A stretch of 64,000 nt of DNA from Candidatus Poribacteria bacterium. GTDB taxonomy: Bacteria; Poribacteria; WGA-4E; WGA-3G. Of the stretch, positions 1,794-57,072 are shown piece by piece. Position 1 is the stretch's first letter. Each line of letters starts with the position of its first letter. The DNA lies in assembly GCA_028824125.1 (NCBI GenBank), contig JAPPES010000136.1:7007-71006 (forward strand). Reading direction: 5' to 3'. Both the position numbers and the translations under genes were made by a program. The notes under the pieces are model-generated. The model was not told where the DNA came from. It did no database searches and worked only from the letters and a program-made list of their open reading frames with translations.

Positions 1794-2570
1794 ATGGAGA
1801 ACACAGATAGCAGCAACGTGGCAACAGAGTTACAAGCACATAATCTTGTTAAAAGGTATACACGTCGGGGGCCAGTCGTCGTCAACGAAGTGAGTTTATC
1901 GCTAAAGCAAGGTGAGATAGTAGGTTTATTAGGGCCGAACGGTGCTGGAAAATCAACTACATTCTACATGGTGGTTGGTCTTATTCGTCCAAATGCAGGT
2001 CGGATCACTTACGGGGATAGAGATATAACGTTCTTGCCGATGTATAAGCGTGCGCGTCTCGGCATAGGTTATCTTTCACAGGAGACATCAATTTTCCGAA
2101 AATTGACGGTAAAACAGAACATTGAATCGATTTTAGAAGCGCGCGGAATGTCAAAAGATGAGCGAGAAACGCGCATACAGGAATTCACAGATGAACTCGG
2201 CATTTCAAATCTTTTAAATCGTAAAGCATATACGCTTTCAGGGGGTGAATGTCGGCGAGCTGAGATTGCTCGTGCGCTCGCCGCACAACCCGAGTTCATT
2301 TTATTAGATGAGCCACTTTCTGGAATTGACCCAATTGCAGTTGCGGACATAAAACAGCTAATTTTACATTTACGAAGCCGTAGCCTTGGAATTCTAATTA
2401 CAGATCACAATGCTGTTGAAACGCTAAATATTGTTGATCGGGCATATCTTATTGCGGATGGGAAAATTACACTATCAGGCACGCCTGAAGAACTTATCAA
2501 TAGCGAAGTTGCGAGAGAACTCTATTTCGGTCATAACTTTCATTATGCAAAAGAGGAGAACAACTCATAA
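1794..2570 (+). CDS. lptB: LPS export ABC transporter ATPase LptB
   Basis: GEIVGLLGPNGAGKSTTFYM, LSGGE, ILLDEP.SGIDPIAV and ILITDHN motifs; lies upstream of rpoN. Confidence 0.95.
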   Translation: MENTDSSNVATELQAHNLVKRYTRRGPVVVNEVSLSLKQGEIVGLLGPNGAGKSTTFYMVVGLIRPNAGRITYGDRDITFLPMYKRARLGIGYLSQETSIFRKLTVKQNIESILEARGMSKDERETRIQEFTDELGISNLLNRKAYTLSGGECRRAEIARALAAQPEFILLDEPLSGIDPIAVADIKQLILHLRSRSLGILITDHNAVETLNIVDRAYLIADGKITLSGTPEELINSEVARELYFGHNFHYAKEENNS

Positions 2571-2660
2571 GAAGAACTTTAGCATCGGTTATCGCTTGAG
2601 AACTACTTTTTTGAAGGCGTTACAGTCACAAATACGCTAACGTTCTAATAGTGATTTATT

Positions 2661-2759
2661 GGGGTACCGCGTGATGAAAATGCAACCGAAACACTGCTGC
2701 TGAGTACGAACATTACATTGACTGCTGGGGGTACCGCGTGATGAAAATGCAACCGAAAC
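2661..2759 (+). repeat. 32-bp direct duplication of the rpoN translation-start region
   Basis: ggggtaccgcgtgatgaaaatgcaaccgaaac occurs at 2661-2692 and again at 2728-2759. Confidence 0.9.
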
Positions 2760-4525
2760 TTACTCAGACGCCGCAGATGACAAATAAAATTGTCATGACA
2801 CCCAAGTTGCAACAGGCAATTAAGGTACTTATGATGCCGCAGCTTGAGTTAAAGCAATTTATAGAGCAAGAGTTGAACCAAAACCCACTTTTAGAAATTG
2901 AGGAAGAGCCTGAGACAGCCCTGTCTATGGAAGATTATGATCCCGCGCCTGAATGGAACAACCCTGAGGAAAATATTGAGCGTGAGGATACTTCTGTTGA
3001 TATTGACTGGCATGCCGTGTTTGACGACATGCGAACACCTGTGACTCAAGTAAATCAGCTGTATGATGATCCCGATGCTCCAGAACCGGACATCGCTGAA
3101 GCACTATCTCTCCAGAATTATCTATATCAACAACTCCAGTTAGCACCTTTCACCAAGACAGAACGTGCTATCGGAGAATTAATTGTTGGGAATTTAAACG
3201 ATGATGGTCGACTCCTATTGAAACTGTTTTCTCTCCCTCTTGAATTCGTTGGTGACTTTGAAAATGAATGTCTCTCAGAAGAATTACAGAAAACATTATC
3301 AAAAAACCTCAGTACTATAACGAATAATGATAAAAAATCAAAGGAAGAAGTCAAAGAACTCTTATTTGAGGTCAATCCTATCGTAGCAGCGCCAGCAAAT
3401 TCGGAAAGCGAATCTAAGCGTTGGGAAATTGTTGATACCATTAGCAAGAAAACATACACAGTTAAACACGAAGGGAACGAAATAAATCTTTATGAACTTA
3501 CTTTAGAAGATATTGCATTTGAGGCGGGATGTACAGTATCCGAAGCTGAAAAAGTACTGCACATGATACAAGAGACATTTGAACCTGCTGGTATCGCTTA
3601 TCGTGACCTCAAGGAAACACTGAGTATACAGATTCGCCATCATGAAATGCAGCACTATAAGCAAAATGGACTATCCCCATATCATGTGCCGTTTCGACTT
3701 GCTAAAGAGATTGTTGAACATCATTTAGAGGATTTATTGAACAATCGAATGGCCGCTATTTCTGAAGCACTTGAGTTAGGCAAAGACGAGATTCTTAAGG
3801 CTTCACAATGGATTGGCACTTTGTCTCCATATCCGGGGCGTTACTTTTCTGATCCATCTGTCAAAGATTTGGTTAAATCACCAGAGACAATCCAAGGGAT
3901 CACTCCTGATGTGCAGGTAGTAAAAAATGGTGAAGATTATTATATTTTACCGATTGATAATTATATTCCGCGTTTACGTATGAATCCTTACTATATTAAC
4001 TTAATGCGCGATGACAGTAAGACGTTAGATTCAGAGGCAAAAAAATGGATTCAAAAAAAATATAATGATGCCGTAGATATACTCAGCAGTATAGCACAGC
4101 GAGGTCGTACTATTGAACGGGTTACGGAAGCTATCTTTGAAGTCCAATCTGATTTCCTAAAACAAGGCCCACAGAGCATTAAACCTTTGACATTGAGAAC
4201 GATTGCCGATATGGCAGGTGTTCACGAATCAACCGTGAGCCGCGTCACGAGTAACAAATATGTTCAGACACCCCTCGGTACTTATCCGTTGAAGTTCTTT
4301 TTTAGCAATCAATTGGCAACAACTCAAGGCGACTCAGTGTCTCCAGAACAGGTTAAGGCAGCCCTTAAAGATGTGATAAGTAAAGAAAATCCAGCCAAAC
4401 CGCTAAGCGATCAAGCGATAAGTGCATCATTGAAAAAACGCGGGATGGTTGTTGCAAGGCGGACTGTGCAAAAATATCGTGAAGAACTCGGCATCCGCTC
4501 TTCCCGTCAAAGGAAAAAATCTTAA
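2738..4525 (+). CDS. rpoN: RNA polymerase sigma-54 factor
   Basis: Region I TPKLQQAIKVL, HTH HESTVSRVTSNKY, and RpoN box ARRTVQKYRE. Confidence 0.97.
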   Translation: MMKMQPKLTQTPQMTNKIVMTPKLQQAIKVLMMPQLELKQFIEQELNQNPLLEIEEEPETALSMEDYDPAPEWNNPEENIEREDTSVDIDWHAVFDDMRTPVTQVNQLYDDPDAPEPDIAEALSLQNYLYQQLQLAPFTKTERAIGELIVGNLNDDGRLLLKLFSLPLEFVGDFENECLSEELQKTLSKNLSTITNNDKKSKEEVKELLFEVNPIVAAPANSESESKRWEIVDTISKKTYTVKHEGNEINLYELTLEDIAFEAGCTVSEAEKVLHMIQETFEPAGIAYRDLKETLSIQIRHHEMQHYKQNGLSPYHVPFRLAKEIVEHHLEDLLNNRMAAISEALELGKDEILKASQWIGTLSPYPGRYFSDPSVKDLVKSPETIQGITPDVQVVKNGEDYYILPIDNYIPRLRMNPYYINLMRDDSKTLDSEAKKWIQKKYNDAVDILSSIAQRGRTIERVTEAIFEVQSDFLKQGPQSIKPLTLRTIADMAGVHESTVSRVTSNKYVQTPLGTYPLKFFFSNQLATTQGDSVSPEQVKAALKDVISKENPAKPLSDQAISASLKKRGMVVARRTVQKYREELGIRSSRQRKKS

Positions 4526-49409: not shown

Positions 49410-50315
49410 CTACCAATTCTTTAGTGTTTCGCTAATTTCACGTTCTAAATATGTATTCAATGCATTTCTTGACAGAACTAATGCCTGTTCGAGATCTTGT
49501 CTTCCTTCTTTGACACGTCCTATCATTTTCTTTGTTATTCCGCGATCATAATATGCTTGAGCATTATCTTTTTGAAGACGAGTTACTACATCAAAGTCAG
49601 CGATAGCATTATCATAATGCCTTATTTCTCTATACGCAGTCGCGCGGTTATAGTATGCTTGAGCATAACCCGGTGAAATGCTTATAGCTTTACTAAAATC
49701 TAATATAGCATCTTCAGGGTGACCTAAGTTGCCTTTCGCACATCCTCTGCTGTAGTAGGCGAGAACGTGATCAGATTTCAGGCGAATTACCTTATTGAAA
49801 TCCGAGATGGAGTTAAAATATTGTCCAAGATCTCGTTTTAGAATTCCTCTTTGATAATATGCTTCAACATAATTTTTGTTTATTTTTATAGCCATATCAC
49901 AGTCTTTAATAGCCTCTTCCAATTTGTTGAGTCTACGTTTTGAAATACTGCGCCTATAATACGCAAGGACAAAGGCAGAATCTAATTGTATCGCTATGTT
50001 AAAATCTAATATAGCATCTTCAGGGTGACCTAAGTTATCTTTTGCAAGACCTCTGTTATAATATGGAAGGGCATTCCTTTCATTTAACTCAATACATTCG
50101 TCATAATCTGCTATAGCATCAAAATATCGTCCTAAAGCATTTTTCGCCAATCCTCGGTTATTATATGCGTCTGAATAATTAGGATTTATTTGAATTGCCT
50201 TATCAAACTCAAATATTGCCTCTTGATAACTTCCTTGATAATATAAAGTGTTACCTGTTTGATAGTGTCCTGTTGCAGTTTGTGTTTCTTCTATGGGTAA
50301 GTTGGCGTTTTCCAT
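49410..50315 (-). CDS. Tetratricopeptide repeat protein
   Basis: About eight 34-aa AY.NRG..K..LG....AI.DF repeats; exact 37-bp duplication at 49694-49730 and 50000-50036. Confidence 0.93.
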   Translation of the reverse strand: MENANLPIEETQTATGHYQTGNTLYYQGSYQEAIFEFDKAIQINPNYSDAYNNRGLAKNALGRYFDAIADYDECIELNERNALPYYNRGLAKDNLGHPEDAILDFNIAIQLDSAFVLAYYRRSISKRRLNKLEEAIKDCDMAIKINKNYVEAYYQRGILKRDLGQYFNSISDFNKVIRLKSDHVLAYYSRGCAKGNLGHPEDAILDFSKAISISPGYAQAYYNRATAYREIRHYDNAIADFDVVTRLQKDNAQAYYDRGITKKMIGRVKEGRQDLEQALVLSRNALNTYLEREISETLKNW

Positions 50316-50794
50316 TAGGCTGCTTCTCCCATATTTTCTTTTAAATCAGTCTGTGTATCATCTGTATACTTTTCAGAGCTACCATGATCTTTTGCCGATT
50401 CAGAAACATCTTGTTTTGGAATATTAGACTTTTTTAAAAAGAAATGTTGAATCAAATACCACCCTATATTTAGGATTATAACTCCGATTACTCCTCTCCA
50501 AATCCAAGATAAGGTTCCTTGTAACTCTTTTATATCGTCATTCATTAACTCTATTTGTTTGCCATTTACTGCGACCTCTTTCCCAAGGGCAGTTATAGTC
50601 TTATTTTGTTCAGTAAATTTCTTATTTTGTTCAGTAAATTTTTTATCAATATAATCCCTGAGCCTATTTTCCAATTCGTGCATTTTTTCAATGATAATTA
50701 TTGTTTGTGATTCAGGAATCTTTTCTTGTCCGTACGCAATAGGGGTAAGGCAAAGCACAAAGATCACCATGAAAGTATCCCATTTGTTACGCAT
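50315..50794 (-). CDS. Hypothetical protein (signal peptide, coiled coil, TM)
   Basis: N-terminal signal, KKFTEQN tandem repeat and one TM; translationally coupled to the TPR gene. Confidence 0.75.
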   Translation of the reverse strand: MRNKWDTFMVIFVLCLTPIAYGQEKIPESQTIIIIEKMHELENRLRDYIDKKFTEQNKKFTEQNKTITALGKEVAVNGKQIELMNDDIKELQGTLSWIWRGVIGVIILNIGWYLIQHFFLKKSNIPKQDVSESAKDHGSSEKYTDDTQTDLKENMGEAA

Positions 50795-50937
50795 TTAGAT
50801 TCACCTTTTATCACACAATACTATTTTCATTATCAAACTCACGTTATTATATCATATAGGTTTGTTGAAGTCAACTTCCATTTTATTCAAGTTACAAACG
50901 TTTTGACTTCGTATCTCTCTAATGATATACTAATTAT

Positions 50938-51211
50938 ACGACTTGTGCCAGTTAACTAAATGTTTTTGTTATTTTCACAGATATCAGGGATTGTTCTATA
51001 ACATATCGTCCCTACGGGACTAAAGATAGGGTATTCAACGTTTTTCTATAAACATATCGTCCCTACGGGACTAAAGATAGGGTATTCAACGTTTTTCTAT
51101 AAACATATCGTCCCTACGGGACTAAAGATCGTTCCAAATGTGAGAATTACTTATAATAATTCCTGCTTATGTGAAAAAATATATTATAAATAGTTATTTA
51201 GCACAACTCGT
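50938..51211 (+). mobile_element. MITE family B, copy 1, carrying 51-bp tandem REP-like repeats
   Basis: Imperfect 21-bp TIRs acgacttgtgccagttaacta and tagttatttagcacaactcgt; flanking direct repeat taattat at 50931-50937 and 51212-51218. Confidence 0.8.
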
Positions 51212-51242: not shown

Positions 51243-52958
51243 ATGAATCTTGATAAAAACCAAGAGAAAGCTGTTAATCATTTTGCGGGCCCTGCCATCG
51301 TTGTTGCGGGACCAGGGAGCGGGAAAACCAGAGTCGTAACAGAACGTATTCTCAGTCTCATTCAAACCCACAATATCCCTCCTTCTAAAATCCTCGCCAT
51401 AGCATTCAATAGAAAAGCGGTTGAAGAGATGGAAAATCGGATTGTTGCAGGGCTAAAGTCAAAAGGCACTTTACCTGTCATCCGTACACTCCACGCCTTT
51501 GGGAAAGATATTGTGACCGCGAACCATAGGCATGCGGGATTTGAACATCATCCCGAAATTTGGTCAGGGGAGATAGACAAAATCATTGCACAAGAAAGGG
51601 GACAGATTGATCAGGCAGCCTCATCCACAACTGTTTCCATCTATAAAATTGAAAATAAACTGACAGGCAAGTGTTATATAGGGCAGTCCACAAACCCGGA
51701 ACGGCGCAGACGTGAACATTTTGACCACTCGTCAAATGATCGACTACGTCAAGCCATTCGTGCAGAAGGAGAAACGCAGTTTGTCTTTAAAGTGTTGGAA
51801 CAGGTTGGAGGAAGAGAGGCAAACGGACGCGAAGCATATTGGATTAGACATCACAGAAACTGTGGCGAAGTGTTCAACCGCGCAGACCCAATGCGCGAAC
51901 AATTTAGCAATCAAGTTATGCTCGAGATGTTCTGCCAACATTTTAACATTCAATACACGGATCATTTGGATAGAGACCCCGATTTTGAAAATCTTCGTGA
52001 CCGTTTCTACGATATAAAAGATATAGTGATGCGTGCAAAACGACAAGTTGAAACCGGACTCTTTGATCCTAATTCGTTGAAAGACCCTGTTGCGCGTGAA
52101 TTCGCAAAGAAATATGAAGACCAAAAATCAACCGCGAATGCTGTTGATTTTGAAGATATGATTATCTACGCAGCACATTTATTAGAGACCCGCTCAGATA
52201 TCCGGCAAAAATACATAGACAGATACCCTTATGTGCTTGTTGATGAGTTCCAAGATATTGCCCCAATTGACTATCGACTTATTTCTCAACTGTCCGAAAA
52301 TCTATTTGCTGTAGGAGACGATGACCAGGCTATTTATAGCTTTCGGGGCGGTGATTCCCAGATTATGCAGAAATTCTCTAACCGATCAGATGTAAAAAAA
52401 TATGAGATTACGCGCAATTATCGTTCTACGTCAACAATTGTGGAGCATGCAAGAGCCATTATTGAACGAAACAAACCTCGGATTCGGAAAAACCTACGTT
52501 CTCATAATCCGATAAAAAATGAAATAGACATCATAGAGACGACACCTGAAACCATCAAAAAACATCTTCTACAAGAATTATCCGATAATATTGAGACAGC
52601 TATCCTTGTGAGAACTAATTATGAGATTGATCGAATTGAGGAGGTCCTTTCAAGTGAATCTTTATCTTTTCCGGTAGAGGTGACGACAATACATAAAGCA
52701 AAAGGACAGGAATGGGAGAGAGTAATTCTTATTCATAATACGTTGGATCGGAGGTTTCCCCGCAAGGATACCATACTTGAAGAAGAACGGCGCGTCTTTT
52801 ATGTGGCAATGACGCGGGCAAAGGGGCAGTTGGTTGTTCTCGGTGGGACGTGCCAATTTGTGCCGGAGTTTAAGAACATTCCTAAGAATATAGGGTATTA
52901 TTATCGGCAGTTTGCGTATTGGCGCGCAAGAAGGAAACTGAAAAAACTTGAGACTTGA
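51243..52958 (+). CDS. UvrD-like SF1 helicase with an inserted GIY-YIG nuclease domain
   Basis: AGPGSGKT, VDEFQD, VGDDDQAIY.FRG, NYRS, TIHKAKG.EW and EERR.FYVA.TRA; insert SIYKI...CYIGQSTNPERR..EH...E...FN. The track start at 51171 lies inside the MITE. Confidence 0.9.
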   Translation: MNLDKNQEKAVNHFAGPAIVVAGPGSGKTRVVTERILSLIQTHNIPPSKILAIAFNRKAVEEMENRIVAGLKSKGTLPVIRTLHAFGKDIVTANHRHAGFEHHPEIWSGEIDKIIAQERGQIDQAASSTTVSIYKIENKLTGKCYIGQSTNPERRRREHFDHSSNDRLRQAIRAEGETQFVFKVLEQVGGREANGREAYWIRHHRNCGEVFNRADPMREQFSNQVMLEMFCQHFNIQYTDHLDRDPDFENLRDRFYDIKDIVMRAKRQVETGLFDPNSLKDPVAREFAKKYEDQKSTANAVDFEDMIIYAAHLLETRSDIRQKYIDRYPYVLVDEFQDIAPIDYRLISQLSENLFAVGDDDQAIYSFRGGDSQIMQKFSNRSDVKKYEITRNYRSTSTIVEHARAIIERNKPRIRKNLRSHNPIKNEIDIIETTPETIKKHLLQELSDNIETAILVRTNYEIDRIEEVLSSESLSFPVEVTTIHKAKGQEWERVILIHNTLDRRFPRKDTILEEERRVFYVAMTRAKGQLVVLGGTCQFVPEFKNIPKNIGYYYRQFAYWRARRKLKKLET

Positions 52959-53055
52959 ATTAGGGATTGTGGTATAATCGCTATTTATGTGTCTATCTTG
53001 GAATTCCATATCTAACTAATTCCTATTTATGCTTTAATATCTACGAGAATATTCT

Positions 53056-56000
53056 GTGGAAGTTAAATTAGACGAACATCAATTGAAGGCAGTTAAACAC
53101 TTTGAAGGTCCTGCTCTTGTGGTAGCCGGACCTGGAAGTGGAAAAACTACTGTTATCATAGAGCGAATTTTGAATCTAATACATGAACATAACGTAGACC
53201 CCGCACAGATTCTTGCAATAGCTTTCACCAATGCTGCTGTAGATGAAATGAAAACAAGACTGAGTTGTGAAGCCGCTCTACCTAAAATCTGTACACTACA
53301 TGTTTTTGGAAAAGAACTAATTACAGATCATTATGACTTGTTAGGATTCAGCAAAGAACCTGAAACGTGGGGAGCAGAAGATATTAGGGAAAAAATATAT
53401 GAGGAAAGGTATTGGCTAAAAAGAGCAACCGATACAACACGCGTTGCAATCTATAAAATGGAGGGCAAAAGGACTCATCGATGTTATATCGGCCAGACTA
53501 CAGATCCAGAACGTCGCAAACAAGAACACCGCACGTATTCATCAAATCGAGGACTTCGTGAGGCACTACAGAGAGGCAATGAGGAATTTGAATTCGAAAT
53601 AATTAGAAAGCCAATGGGCAAAAATGCGGACTATGAAGAAACTGAAGAGATTAATAATCACAGAAACCGTGCTGCTGTTATTTTAGAAGAGGTACGAGAA
53701 GAAATAGTAAATGAAAATCCGGATATTGGCATAACTCTTTATAAAATTAAATCTAAGTCGACAGTCACTTGTTATTTTGGACTATCCACAGATCTAGAGC
53801 AGAGCAAAGAATTACACTTCACAGAGTCCCCAAATGATTCATTTCGTGAAGCAATTGAAAACGAAGAAATTGATATATCCTCATTTGAGGTTATGGCAGA
53901 AGGAATGTCCTGGGTAGACGCATCTACACACCTTGAAGGAGAAGTTAGGTCTTACAAAAAATGGGCAGTGTTTAACGACGAAGACCCATTACACGCACGA
54001 GATAGTACTCGACGACGAATTGAGGTATTCTGTAAATATTTTAATGTTCCCTACGATGAAGTCCTTGAACATACTCAGAAGTTTGAACATGAGATGCAAA
54101 AATTTGACAATCTGATAGATGACATTGAAAAACAGAAACGACAAGTAAAAAGTGGTAAGTTTCAACCTCATAAAATTGTGGATCCAATTCTTCGAGCATT
54201 TGCCACAAGGTATGAAGAAAGAAAGGATGAAGCCAATGCAATTGATTTATTTGATATGCTAATCTGTTCAGCAGATATGCTTGAGGAAAAACCTGAACTT
54301 CTAGACGGATATCGCGAAAAATATCGTTATGTATTTGTTGATGAATTTCAAGACATATCACCAACGGATTTTCGCTTGATAAAACTATTTCCAGATAACC
54401 TTTTTGCCGTAGGCGATGACGATCAGGCAATTTATGGATTCCGCGGCGGGGATTCCAACATTATGCAAAAGGACTTTGGCAACTGGGAAAATGTAGAAAA
54501 ATATGAAGTGACATGCAATTATCGTTCTACCTCAAGCATTGTTATGCATGCAAAGGCACTGATTAAACACAATAAGGCCCGAATCAGTAAAGATCTTCGT
54601 GCTGAAAAATTTTCATTGAATCAAGTAAAAATCTTGAATTCTACACAGAAGAATGTGAAAGAGGCATTGTTAAGCGAGATATCAAACATACTATCGAGTA
54701 ATTACCAAAATTTCGGAATCTTGGCTCGCAATTGGAAGGGTGAAATTAATGCGATACAAAAAATACTTGACTGCGACGAAATTAAGAAGCAAGGATTTGA
54801 TATTGAATGGGAAGGATTTGAAGATTCATCAGAAGATTTTGAAAACGAAGATGAAGAAAAAAGAAGGAAAATGTACCTACGTCATGGGTCAAAGGAAATA
54901 GAAATAATTAACATTCACAAAGCCAAAGGTAGGGAATGGGACAAAGTTATCCTTCTTGTGAATACAATGTATAATAGTTTTCCCGATGATAGAAATGATC
55001 TAGCTGAAGAAAGACGACTTTTCTACGTCGCGGTAACTCGTGCTAAACATGAATTACTCATTTTGGATGCAGGAAAATGTCAATTCACGTCTGAATTCCA
55101 GGATATACCACTTTCAGAACATAAACAGCAATTGAAAAAAGCCCAAAGTGTTTTATTATCTGCATTTGGAAAGCGTTTGACTGATGCTAAAGAACAACTG
55201 ACTGATGCTGAAGAGCAATTACAAATAGCTTCTGAAATTTTACCAACGGCATTAATGTCACAACGCGAAAGACTGATAGAATCGTCAGCAAAAGCTATTC
55301 GTAAGCAATACAAAATTGAACTTGAACATAGACGAAATGCTATCAATCGAACCGAGAGTACTACGAAAAAAATAAAAACAAACCTGCCTCAGCAACTAAA
55401 GAAATCTGAAGAGAACTTCCTTCCAAAGTTAATTCCAGTATTGGATCAGTTGGAATCTGTAATTAAAAATGTTACAGAGACAATTGAGACGAATATTTTA
55501 TCCGATGAATTAGCAACATTCTGCGAAGATATTCTTTCCACACAAGAACAGTTCCTTGATCTTCTTAAAAACTATGGAATCAAACCATTTGAAACCATTG
55601 GGACATCACTTAATCTCCAGCTACATGAAGTTATTCAACCCGCTTTGTACTCGGATAAAGTGCCGCAAGGAAAAATTGTCAAAGAATTTCAACGTGGATA
55701 TCTATTGCATGATCAGGTGATTCAGAAAGCAAAAGTTGCAATTTCTAAAGGACCAAATCCTTGGACAACTGAGAGATTAGAGCAAGTTGTGGAAATATAT
55801 TTGGACCGCCTAATTTCTGCATTTCAAACAAAATATCAATTTACCAATTTTGAAAAGCCGCGTGTTATAGAAAAAATGGTAAAATATCTGTTGGAATTAG
55901 AGGATGAATCTATAAAGGAAATTGGTTTGTTTTCCTCAAAAAGTACTGCAGAGGCTATTGAGGTAAAACGCTATGCCGACTATTGTGCCGGCCCTGAGAA

Positions 56001-57072
56001 AATACACTTGTGTACCAGCGTGTTTCAAGACTTCTGGAATAAAATGTGGGAAATAATTATATCTGATATAGAAAAAGATAATAAACAGGCAGATGTACTT
56101 TTGAGTCAAGATTTTACACAGCCGGTAAGGTTCATAACATATTCAGGCATTCGAGACCTTACGAACATAAAAACATTTCAGGATCACATTGTAGGAATTG
56201 ATACACAAGGTTCAAAGGTAAATTTGGAAACACACACCATCCTGTTTGCGTTTCCCAAAGAGAACATGGATGTACTAAAACCGAATGTCAAAACAAGACG
56301 AGCTATTACAGATCAAAAATTGCAACCGGTCCAAAACATGTCTGAAAGGTTCCATGTTGCAGATGATAGTTTCAAGACAATTCTTATTAATCAGGACACA
56401 GGAGAAATTTGTAATCAAAAATCTGGTGTCCAACTTGTTACCCGATCTGGTCATGTTCTAAAGGGTTATCTTTGGGACTTCAACTTTAATTTCCTATTTA
56501 TGCAAATCAATGGGACTGATGTGGTTGTTTATCGGCATGGGTTATTAGAATTCAAATATTTGGATTGGGATGAAATTGTTAATGCCTACAAAAGCGGAAT
56601 TCCCATTTATGGAAAGGTTTCTGAGGAAATTAAAGGCGGTCTGAAAATAAAATACGGATCCTTATATGGATTTCTTCCCGCATCAGAAATAGAATTAAGA
56701 TCAACTTACAAACTGGATTCATATATTGGAAAAGCATTTGAAATGAAAATAATTAAACTCAACAAACAGCGGAAAAATTTTGTTTTATCGCGACGTGCCT
56801 GGCTTAAGGAAAAAAGAAATGAGTTTTTTAAAACCCTTAAGATTGGACAACAGGTTACAGGCATTGTGAAAAACATTACAACTTTTGGTGCGTTTGTTGA
56901 TCTCGGGTACGTTGATGGATTAATTCACATAACGGAGTTAGCTTTGAAACGTATAGGTCACCCATCCGAAGTCATTTCAATTGGTGATGAAGTTGAAGTA
57001 AAAGTTATCAAATTTAATCGAGAAGATGGAAAGATATGGTTGAGTCTAAAACAAATGAAAAGCGCCCCTTAG
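53056..57072 (+). CDS. Multidomain UvrD-like helicase with two GIY-YIG inserts and GrpE-like, Hfq/Sm-like and S1 domains
   Basis: All SF1 motifs present; GrpE-like LIPVLDQLE...HE...QRGYLL...VI..AKV.IS; YRHGL Sm2-like motif; RpsA-like GIVKNITTFGAFVDLG.VDGLIHITEL. Confidence 0.85.
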   Translation: MEVKLDEHQLKAVKHFEGPALVVAGPGSGKTTVIIERILNLIHEHNVDPAQILAIAFTNAAVDEMKTRLSCEAALPKICTLHVFGKELITDHYDLLGFSKEPETWGAEDIREKIYEERYWLKRATDTTRVAIYKMEGKRTHRCYIGQTTDPERRKQEHRTYSSNRGLREALQRGNEEFEFEIIRKPMGKNADYEETEEINNHRNRAAVILEEVREEIVNENPDIGITLYKIKSKSTVTCYFGLSTDLEQSKELHFTESPNDSFREAIENEEIDISSFEVMAEGMSWVDASTHLEGEVRSYKKWAVFNDEDPLHARDSTRRRIEVFCKYFNVPYDEVLEHTQKFEHEMQKFDNLIDDIEKQKRQVKSGKFQPHKIVDPILRAFATRYEERKDEANAIDLFDMLICSADMLEEKPELLDGYREKYRYVFVDEFQDISPTDFRLIKLFPDNLFAVGDDDQAIYGFRGGDSNIMQKDFGNWENVEKYEVTCNYRSTSSIVMHAKALIKHNKARISKDLRAEKFSLNQVKILNSTQKNVKEALLSEISNILSSNYQNFGILARNWKGEINAIQKILDCDEIKKQGFDIEWEGFEDSSEDFENEDEEKRRKMYLRHGSKEIEIINIHKAKGREWDKVILLVNTMYNSFPDDRNDLAEERRLFYVAVTRAKHELLILDAGKCQFTSEFQDIPLSEHKQQLKKAQSVLLSAFGKRLTDAKEQLTDAEEQLQIASEILPTALMSQRERLIESSAKAIRKQYKIELEHRRNAINRTESTTKKIKTNLPQQLKKSEENFLPKLIPVLDQLESVIKNVTETIETNILSDELATFCEDILSTQEQFLDLLKNYGIKPFETIGTSLNLQLHEVIQPALYSDKVPQGKIVKEFQRGYLLHDQVIQKAKVAISKGPNPWTTERLEQVVEIYLDRLISAFQTKYQFTNFEKPRVIEKMVKYLLELEDESIKEIGLFSSKSTAEAIEVKRYADYCAGPEKIHLCTSVFQDFWNKMWEIIISDIEKDNKQADVLLSQDFTQPVRFITYSGIRDLTNIKTFQDHIVGIDTQGSKVNLETHTILFAFPKENMDVLKPNVKTRRAITDQKLQPVQNMSERFHVADDSFKTILINQDTGEICNQKSGVQLVTRSGHVLKGYLWDFNFNFLFMQINGTDVVVYRHGLLEFKYLDWDEIVNAYKSGIPIYGKVSEEIKGGLKIKYGSLYGFLPASEIELRSTYKLDSYIGKAFEMKIIKLNKQRKNFVLSRRAWLKEKRNEFFKTLKIGQQVTGIVKNITTFGAFVDLGYVDGLIHITELALKRIGHPSEVISIGDEVEVKVIKFNREDGKIWLSLKQMKSAP

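Follow-up and report, generated by a model that had tools for sequence, protein, structure and literature searches.

In a 64,000-nucleotide stretch of the genome of a Candidatus Poribacteria bacterium (contig JAPPES010000136.1; hereafter the window, with positions counted from its first letter) we found a gene for a helicase-nuclease with domains of chaperone and translation factors at its C-terminal end. Poribacteria are uncultured symbionts of sponges. The protein, of 1338 amino acids, joins a UvrD-type helicase and GIY-YIG nuclease inserts to a tail with a GrpE-like domain, two Sm-like domains and two S1 repeats. All parts come from known families, and the combination is not in print as far as we searched. 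The literature search, with most subscription journals and supplementary files outside its scope, gave nothing on GIY-YIG together with UvrD and GrpE or on a GrpE domain in a helicase, and nothing pertinent on combinations of GmrSD, cold-shock domain (CSD), S1 and Hfq or on tandem Sm domains. A GrpE domain within a helicase-nuclease was unexpected, as were arrays of RNA-chaperone type (Sm, S1, CSD) on this enzyme and on type IV restriction enzymes. From the anatomy, distribution and associations observed we tentatively infer an accessory enzyme acting against foreign DNA, whose tail would dimerise it and bind single-stranded RNA or DNA.

Helicase core and nuclease inserts

The gene (53056-57072, + strand) starts with GTG and is a single unbroken open reading frame (ORF) with its stop at 57070-57072. 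The protein collection also contains an identical entry (P0003). On the same strand, upstream, lies the gene of a tail-less paralogue of 571 amino acids (51243-52958, +), a UvrD-type helicase with one complete GIY-YIG insert (Pfam UvrD-helicase, 211 bits; GIY-YIG, 36.6 bits with a cut-off of 22.6).

Residues 1-680 of the long protein (53056-55095, +) form a superfamily 1A (SF1A) helicase core of UvrD/PcrA type, matched by UvrD-helicase over residues 5-472 (PF00580, 188.7 bits) and by UvrD_C over residues 609-669 (PF13361, 66.9 bits). The motifs read were Walker A GPGSGKT, motif II DEFQD, motif III GDDDQAIYGFRGG and motif VI VAVTRAK. According to Pfam, both helicases have the GIY-YIG nuclease inserted ahead of motif II. 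Insert 1 of the long protein (residues 126-215; 53431-53700, +) has IYK, CYIGQT, ERRKQEH and E, with the catalytic Y, Y, R, H and E kept. It was recognized in the family alignment and, at 19.0 bits, fails the PF01541 cut-off of 22.6, which the short paralogue, with every GIY-YIG motif conserved, passes. Insert 2 (residues 216-310; 53701-53985, +) is degenerate: other residues stand in for the Arg/His stretch in the window copy, and the family consensus has a gap there. Judged by these motifs, both the SF1A motor and the first GIY-YIG domain appear competent for catalysis.

With UvrD, PcrA and Rep the long protein shares both Pfam helicase families and all motor motifs. Unlike them, it has GIY-YIG domains inserted before motif II and a foreign tail of 650 residues, and it is encoded in a tandem pair of paralogues with one or two GIY-YIG domains per protein. 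The equivalog cut-offs of the PcrA/UvrD/Rep models were not reached (213 against 911 bits for PcrA; 179 against 1144 and 182 against 951 bits), and the short paralogue was likewise far under those for PcrA, UvrD and Rep. The best PADLOC matches of the long protein were to GajB of Gabija (E 1e-58), and both have a UvrD-type motor working with a nuclease. In contrast to Gabija, the nuclease here is a GIY-YIG domain inside the helicase, and the GajB match spans the generic helicase core only. A Gabija-like system was rejected, with no gene for GajA (the OLD-family ATPase-nuclease) adjoining.

GrpE-like domain and mid1

Motif VI is followed by a helical linker (residues 681-741; 55096-55278, +) with the repeat LTDAKEQLTDAEEQL, which aligned among the homologues and is presumably a coiled coil. 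The GrpE-like domain comes next (residues 742-898; 55279-55749, +). It was matched by PF01025 over profile positions 17-165 of 165 (E 3.5e-23; 82.5 bits, cut-off 25.8), and a phmmer search of solved structures gave E. coli GrpE (1dkg) at E 3e-9. Both searches bear out the first-pass annotation, made from the sequence alone, which had placed a GrpE-like domain after motif VI from the peptides LIPVLDQLE, GIKPFETIG and IVKEFQRGYLL, found at 55429, 55576 and 55675.

The domain is 36% identical to the product of the genome's own grpE, a separate canonical gene scoring 149 bits. Its C-terminal signature closely resembles that of the Poribacteria host GrpE, including a Q at the position of E. coli R183. 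The Pfam model is common to the domain and the GrpE proteins, such as those of E. coli (1dkg) and G. kaustophilus (4ani). Unlike GrpE, a free nucleotide-exchange co-chaperone of DnaK of ~200 amino acids, it is an internal domain of a 1338-residue helicase.

A further conserved domain, mid1 (residues 901-1015; 55756-56100, +), was delimited from an alignment (A3), and its invariant residues (segment numbering) include Y15, L16, R18, C86, T87, F93, W94 and W98. We found no Pfam match to mid1 at E<=10, and a search of PDB sequences with a 7-row profile gave none better than E 0.5. The best Atlas score was 0.88, to clusters partly annotated as RsbRD_N; it is under the 0.9 line and a lead only.

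A tandem Sm module related to Hfq

Pfam matched nothing in residues 901-1170 of the window protein, even at E<=10. A six-frame search of genomes of the phylum showed that residues ~1006-1170 recur as a unit, which makes up small ORFs and also forms the terminal part of further large proteins. This unit holds a first Sm-like domain (residues 1013-1097; 56092-56346, +) and a second one (residues 1101-1170; 56356-56565, +) in which the Sm2 motif YRH is kept.

A profile from a 23-row alignment of the module (A1) had only Hfq among its best 35 PDB matches, led by 1kq1 at E 1.6e-6. Pfam Hfq was matched by 21 of the 23 members (best 2.1e-10), the window copy being one of the two misses. In the AlphaFold2 (AF2) model used for the second domain (predicted local distance difference test, pLDDT, 72.5), model residues 96-165 superposed on Hfq with Z 7.1 and a root-mean-square deviation (rmsd) of 1.5 Å, over 61 of the 63 residues of 6gwk, and the top seven structural matches were all Hfq. 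For the first segment there was no sequence match. Modelled alone by AF2 from a 61-row alignment (pLDDT 83.2), it had a helix and five strands, and the best five of 48,161 chains were all Hfq or Hfq-like (Z 6.8-7.5), with 3hfo at Z 7.5 and rmsd 1.9 Å over 56 of 65 residues. By the structure tool's own note, Z values below 8, as for both domains, are middling. Foldseek alone gave none at E<=1e-3 for either model; Hfq rows were still the best, with 3hfo at E 2.2e-2 for the first domain.

The two segments thus make up a pair of Sm domains in tandem. Profile and fold together mark the second as a true Hfq homologue, the window's own copy being a diverged one that does not score as a Pfam member, and the first is Sm/Hfq-like by its modelled fold only. 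The Hfq pattern had been claimed earlier for both segments, from PVRFITYSG (56122) and HTILFAFP (56233) in one and VQLVTRSGH (56428) and VVVYRHGL (56521) in the other. Both modelled as Sm folds, and the claim holds by profile and fold for the second and by fold for the first.

The double-Sm module forms a separate family, for which we counted 324 cluster representatives at E<=1e-3. The module shares with Hfq the second domain (by profile, fold and YRH motif) and the fold of the first. It differs from Hfq in having tandem Sm domains in one chain as a fixed unit of ~140 amino acids, and in occurring alone, in arrays of up to five, or C-terminal on large enzymes. A tandem Hfq in one Novosphingobium ORF was reportedly noted by Sun, Zhulin and Wartell in 2002.

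The genome of the window has two small stand-alone double-Sm genes of 172 and 156 amino acids (L041:1459-1977, −; L042:210-680, −). It also encodes a 327-residue protein (L043:982-1965, contig C2) with an N-terminal CSD, a long polar linker and a double-Sm module. No canonical Hfq above the cut-off was found in this genome. We rejected the stand-alone gene as the core Hfq of the phylum, this type being present in 24 of 176 genomes only. FlgV/'Hfq' of Borrelia was also set aside as unrelated, its report (PMC11607428) describing a two-transmembrane protein.

S1 repeats

The protein ends with S1 repeats a (residues 1171-1255; 56566-56820, +) and b (residues 1261-1332; 56836-57051, +). PF00575 matched two stretches (91 bits, cut-off 22), and repeat b, with the canonical G.V...FGAFVDL...GL.H motif, covers profile positions 2-74 of 74. 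NCBIfam RpsA models aligned to residues 1170-1338 at E 1e-54, as expected from the earlier call of RpsA-like repeats here. They stayed far under their equivalog cut-offs; the full-length RpsA model NF004952 gave 184 against 524 bits and only model positions 122-293 were aligned. Common to the tail and RpsA are two consecutive central S1 repeats, which fall in the Poribacteria RpsA clade. Unlike RpsA, with six or so repeats, the window protein has only two (0-4 in relatives) and is not a ribosomal protein.

The S1 pair and the rpsA product of the same genome share 61% identity. In a FastTree phylogeny with midpoint root, all tail S1 pairs and Poribacteria RpsA formed a single clade that excluded other phyla, and RpsA branched from within the tails. 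The tail of P0048 adjoined the RpsA proteins P0060, P0063 and P0065, and the window's pair grouped with other tails.

Poribacteria RpsA is itself unusually long, with 795-919 amino acids (P0049-P0083) and an 848-residue frame in the genome of the window (L035, contig C78). An N-terminal extension of 170-290 residues precedes its recognizable S1 repeats.

Distribution and variation of the tails

The short gene was found in 107 of 111 genomes of one Poribacteria family and in one of 64 elsewhere in the phylum, that one genome being 15% contaminated. Its source names are only 'UvrD-helicase domain-containing protein' or 'hypothetical'. The full core of the long protein (E<=1e-100) was present in 18 of 176 genomes; G112 and G139, found via their tails, bring this to ~20 of 176. 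Of the 18 long-gene loci, 16 have a tail-less paralogue of ~570-605 amino acids upstream, in the same orientation. Two of the 18 copies are broken, one in three ORFs (G105) and one split between the Sm domains (G080). The short gene is therefore the family-core member of the pair, and the long gene its accessory, patchy second member.

Tails differed between loci. Over the 18 loci we counted GrpE in 12, mid1 in eight, double-Sm in eight and S1 in 10 (one to four repeats), and three had no known module. The homologue search listed 119 proteins other than the query itself, and 55 of them belonged to the tailed family, with GrpE in 53, mid1 in 25, double-Sm in 41 and S1 in 52. The order GrpE, mid1, double-Sm, S1, acidic end was constant. 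The acidic end, absent from the window protein, is a low-complexity extension of 180-330 residues in 35 relatives, rich in Pro/Glu/Ser/Thr and closed by the conserved basic motif KKGFGYYL..GGRFVREKIK (L046:8108-8782, −; L048:353-1273, −; L052:8127-8768, −; and 32 database relatives). Three relatives checked had no Pfam match in it.

Identities varied by domain. Between the window protein and that of G100 the core was 66-69% identical and the linker, GrpE and Sm parts 30-34%. With G108 the values were 55-62% for the core, 55% for GrpE and 58-80% for S1, with 80% in repeat b. Core and GrpE trees (FastTree, midpoint roots) disagreed on G090 and on G100/G086. The first-pass annotation had expected variable tails among homologues, and the module counts, identities and discordant trees agree that tails vary and are swapped. 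All 28 tail-type module loci found among the genomes of 185,579 species were from Candidatus Poribacteria; the search patterns were specific to the tail-type subfamily and set no bound on the wider module family.

The architecture might in principle come from an assembly chimera or sequencing artefact joining a helicase gene to fragments of grpE, hfq and rpsA, a caveat raised with the initial prediction. The genome is a 162-contig assembly, and nothing else was found that would favour this. The same architecture was present in single-contig genomes (e.g., G100, G108, G090, G068) and in the 55 database proteins, and fusions occur at 17 further Poribacteria loci. A contig from a second study was identical over 56466-56894, across the Hfq-to-S1 junction. 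Another contig, ~93% identical, covers 55623-56174, from GrpE through mid1 to Sm; it comes from a different sample (run X4) of the study to which the likely source run belongs. The genome also has separate grpE, rpsA and dnaK genes elsewhere. A chimera is refuted for practical purposes.

Neutral accretion is a second way to account for such tails, which would then be functionless remnants that a duplicated gene had picked up at its 3' end by recombination. Their wide variation, the three loci with no known module, the broken copies and the window copy, the most degenerate in several motifs, are what one would expect from it. We nevertheless hold it to be very improbable. The long frames are stop-free in 16 of the 18 loci, the module order is constant and the modules recur on unrelated enzymes. 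In the G100/G086 pair the proportion of nonsynonymous changes (pN, 0.03-0.07) was at or below that of synonymous ones (pS, 0.04-0.13) in every tail domain; changes were few, and the values suggest tail domains that are not obviously decaying.

The same modules on restriction enzymes

We scanned 25 representatives with a fused double-Sm module. Fifteen were GmrSD proteins, four UvrD with GrpE, three Sacsin-like and one RNase H-like, and two had no further family. Nine of the GmrSD fusions also had a CSD and one had five S1 repeats; the GrpE-like domain was on none of the 15 scanned. In G167 and G110 a GmrSD with double-Sm and CSD stands beside a tail-less GmrSD paralogue (loci L130:2962-5604, −, and L131:2220-4877, +). 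In G170 a GmrSD with five tandem double-Sm modules (L129:2173-6069, −) neighbours a 757-residue GmrSD paralogue with one Hfq-like stretch.

The long gene and the GmrSD type IV restriction endonucleases of Poribacteria thus have in common the C-terminal double-Sm module, with CSD or S1 arrays, and the adjoining paralogue. The catalytic part sets GmrSD apart, being of DUF262/DUF1524 type. The design of a paralogue beside a tailed paralogue is thus found again in a class of enzymes known to act against phages. A role in conflict or defence is more likely because the same double-Sm, S1 and CSD modules are found on GmrSD restriction endonucleases, and this sharing hints at a role of the long gene against foreign DNA.

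Sacsin-domain proteins of ~1200 amino acids also end in the double-Sm module (L051:6617-10348; L055:9777-13403, −; L053).

Proposed role of the tail

The explanation that we tentatively favor is that the long gene is the fast-diversifying accessory member of a tandem pair and encodes an enzyme directed at nucleic acid that is foreign or aberrant. Most likely it would cooperate with the tail-less core paralogue encoded just upstream, and the C-terminal tail would be its targeting or regulating part. The linker and GrpE-like domain would dimerise the enzyme, since GrpE itself forms dimers and UvrD-type helicases are most effective at unwinding in dimeric form, and may also touch DnaK. On the DnaK contact, a complex prediction for two copies of linker plus GrpE-like domain (alignment A5) with the nucleotide-binding domain of the genome's DnaK (A4) scored 0.00 in a run without controls and points neither way. 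For mycobacterial UvrD1, one report (PMC11975281) states that homodimerisation gives a highly active helicase. The four small beta-barrels (two Sm, two S1) would bind single-stranded RNA or DNA and could hold the enzyme, or switch it on, at transcripts, at R-loops or at the single-stranded intermediates that an invading element forms. The canonical S1 motif of repeat b and the kept YRH motif of the Hfq-like domain are consistent with binding. If the tails are RNA tethers, DNA-cutting enzymes would be linked to transcripts.

Several observations weigh against this proposal. In the GrpE-like copy there is neither the AxFENxRKR-type helix motif nor F86 (E. coli numbering via the 1dkg alignment), both of which we take to be DnaK contacts. 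Compared with 1dkg we found R73>T, R74>K, K82>Q, F86>K and R104>S and a 4-residue gap in the signature; the genome's own GrpE retains AEAENSKRR and the F, and the consensus of the tail family is variable at that site. Dimerising does not require a GrpE domain, and its presence in 53 of 55 tails is not really explained. The window's Hfq-like copy alone fails Pfam Hfq (PF17209), at E<=10 and at E<=1. At the positions of Hfq Q8, F/Y42, K56 and H57, presumably the proximal uridine pocket, the window copy has A, N, R and H and the module family D, Y, R and H, so that the window's pocket is degenerate at the first two. At the locus we recognized no defence island, and synteny is kept, as one would see with vertical inheritance of the gene. 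PADLOC gave only generic helicase matches (GajB, RTasHel), with no partner nuclease gene adjoining. Viral contigs held no relative of the double-Sm module or of residues 1-900, and there was no sign of mobility.

The initial prediction had seen in the tail copies of host factors commonly hijacked by phages, which could act as integrated decoys or sensors or could direct the enzyme to RNA or ribosomes. The first part stood for S1 and GrpE, which come from the lineage's own rpsA and grpE, and fell for the double-Sm module, which copies no core host Hfq. The variability expected of the tails was found, and it fits decoys and RNA targeting alike.

In plant nucleotide-binding leucine-rich repeat (NLR) proteins with integrated decoys, domains of host origin are joined to an immune effector or sensor and differ from one allele to another. 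The GrpE-like, S1 and Sm modules could likewise imitate phage-targeted host factors, so that binding or modification of the bait releases or activates the helicase-nuclease, a reading that we consider unlikely. The comparison is an analogy only, and targeting of the fused domains by a pathogen is without evidence here. Extended to the whole set, Poribacteria might conceivably fit unrelated immune enzymes with host-factor baits as integrated decoys and swap the modules as cassettes. The enzymes would be, with the same low probability, the GIY-YIG/UvrD helicase-nuclease, GmrSD and Sacsin-like ATPases, and the baits GrpE, S1, cold-shock and Hfq-like domains.

Decoys would agree with the origin of the S1 and GrpE modules, given the 61% identity, the shared S1 clade and the host-like C-terminus of GrpE. 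They would also agree with the same baits on different effectors (UvrD/GIY-YIG, GmrSD, Sacsin-like), the mosaic tails and the patchy distribution. GrpE binds no nucleic acid, and a bait therefore explains it better than RNA targeting does. We know of no Poribacteria phage that targets GrpE, S1 or Hfq-like factors, and this counts against baits. So does the S1 pair, which groups with other tails and not with its own rpsA; at 61% it is no closer to that gene than to other tails (58-80%, G108), so nothing suggests that the bait follows its model. The double-Sm module is no copy of a core protein, with its stand-alone form in few genomes and no canonical Hfq above the cut-off. All modules other than GrpE and mid1 are plain single-strand binders, for which targeting is the simpler explanation. 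On the side of decoys, phage T4 ModB is reported to attach ADP-ribose/RNA to ribosomal protein S1 (PMC10468400), and the title of structure entry 9lu5 describes Hfq in an assembly with T4 neck proteins.

If the tails are sensors or baits, they would be a new way for bacterial immunity to read infection, and, if the decoy reading is true, a bacterial counterpart of the integrated-decoy principle of plant NLRs. Either way, the tandem-Sm module family and the recurring design of a tail-less and a tailed paralogue are defined here, together with a concrete natural domain-swap set, testable in a laboratory host.

Genomic setting and a possible housekeeping role

The short gene is mostly just downstream of purL/purQ, which were neighbours in 10 of 13 loci. 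The Pfam-annotated neighbours of the long gene in the window were the second helicase, an XhlA-like ORF, a TPR protein, a PorV-like protein and an MFS transporter. Within the genus, downstream genes were MFS, FGE-sulfatase, PhyH and enolase-like.

Such a setting also suits a lineage-specific role in repair or quality control, in which the tailed paralogue is drawn to transcribing and translating complexes by S1 and Sm and to DnaK by GrpE. Under stress, the pair might then clear damaged DNA, R-loops or transcription-translation complexes that have stalled. There are established cases of UvrD-family helicases whose accessory C-terminal domains touch the transcription machinery, and the short paralogue is a family-core gene with a fixed place by purL/purQ and no mobile-element or defence-island signals. 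The genome of the window also has double-Sm modules with a CSD or as small stand-alone genes, like ordinary RNA chaperones. A housekeeping role is nonetheless not very likely in our view: the long gene is missing from most genomes that keep the short one, is broken in two of the 18 loci and has a tail swapped between lineages, and the commonest partners of the modules are restriction endonucleases.

Gene starts, promoters and further observations

The mechanically called ORF of the short helicase begins at GTG 51171 (595 amino acids). ATG 51243 is the likelier start, because homologues align only from about residue 20-25 (equivalent to M25) and relatives have stops upstream of the start equivalent to M25. 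A promoter-like site upstream of the pair (TTGACT-17-TATACT with TG before the -10; 50903-50931, +) is a consensus match only, and the 21 such sites found in the region are no excess over the 22.4 expected from shuffles. Between this site and the first helicase gene the palindrome GTCCCGTAGGGAC occurs in three copies with 51-base spacing (51008-51122). The long gene may have its own promoter, because an extended -10-like box, TGTGGTATAAT, lies at 52966-52980 in the 97-base gap between the helicase genes.

Just upstream of the pair is a 159-residue ORF (50315-50794, −) with a sub-threshold XhlA match (28.6 bits, cut-off 34.7), which adjoins the TPR protein and the PorV-like outer-membrane protein. 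In G100 an oppositely oriented ORF of 286 amino acids (L088:6717-7577, −) lies between the short and long helicase genes, as it does in G086, where the gap is likewise 1.4 kb.

The double-Sm module was also found at two further loci (L011:1141-1980 and 2248-3459; L014:1489-3456). In a 279-residue protein (L011:1141-1980) it stands behind an N-terminal stretch of ~60 residues, which is a repeat of the start of the SNF2-like helicase next to it. The linker of this protein, …APPETIEQIESLLQS…, recurs inside a large protein upstream of another module copy, one that has no start codon to itself. Read from the sequence, the pattern at the two loci looks like cassette-like shuffling of 3' gene ends.

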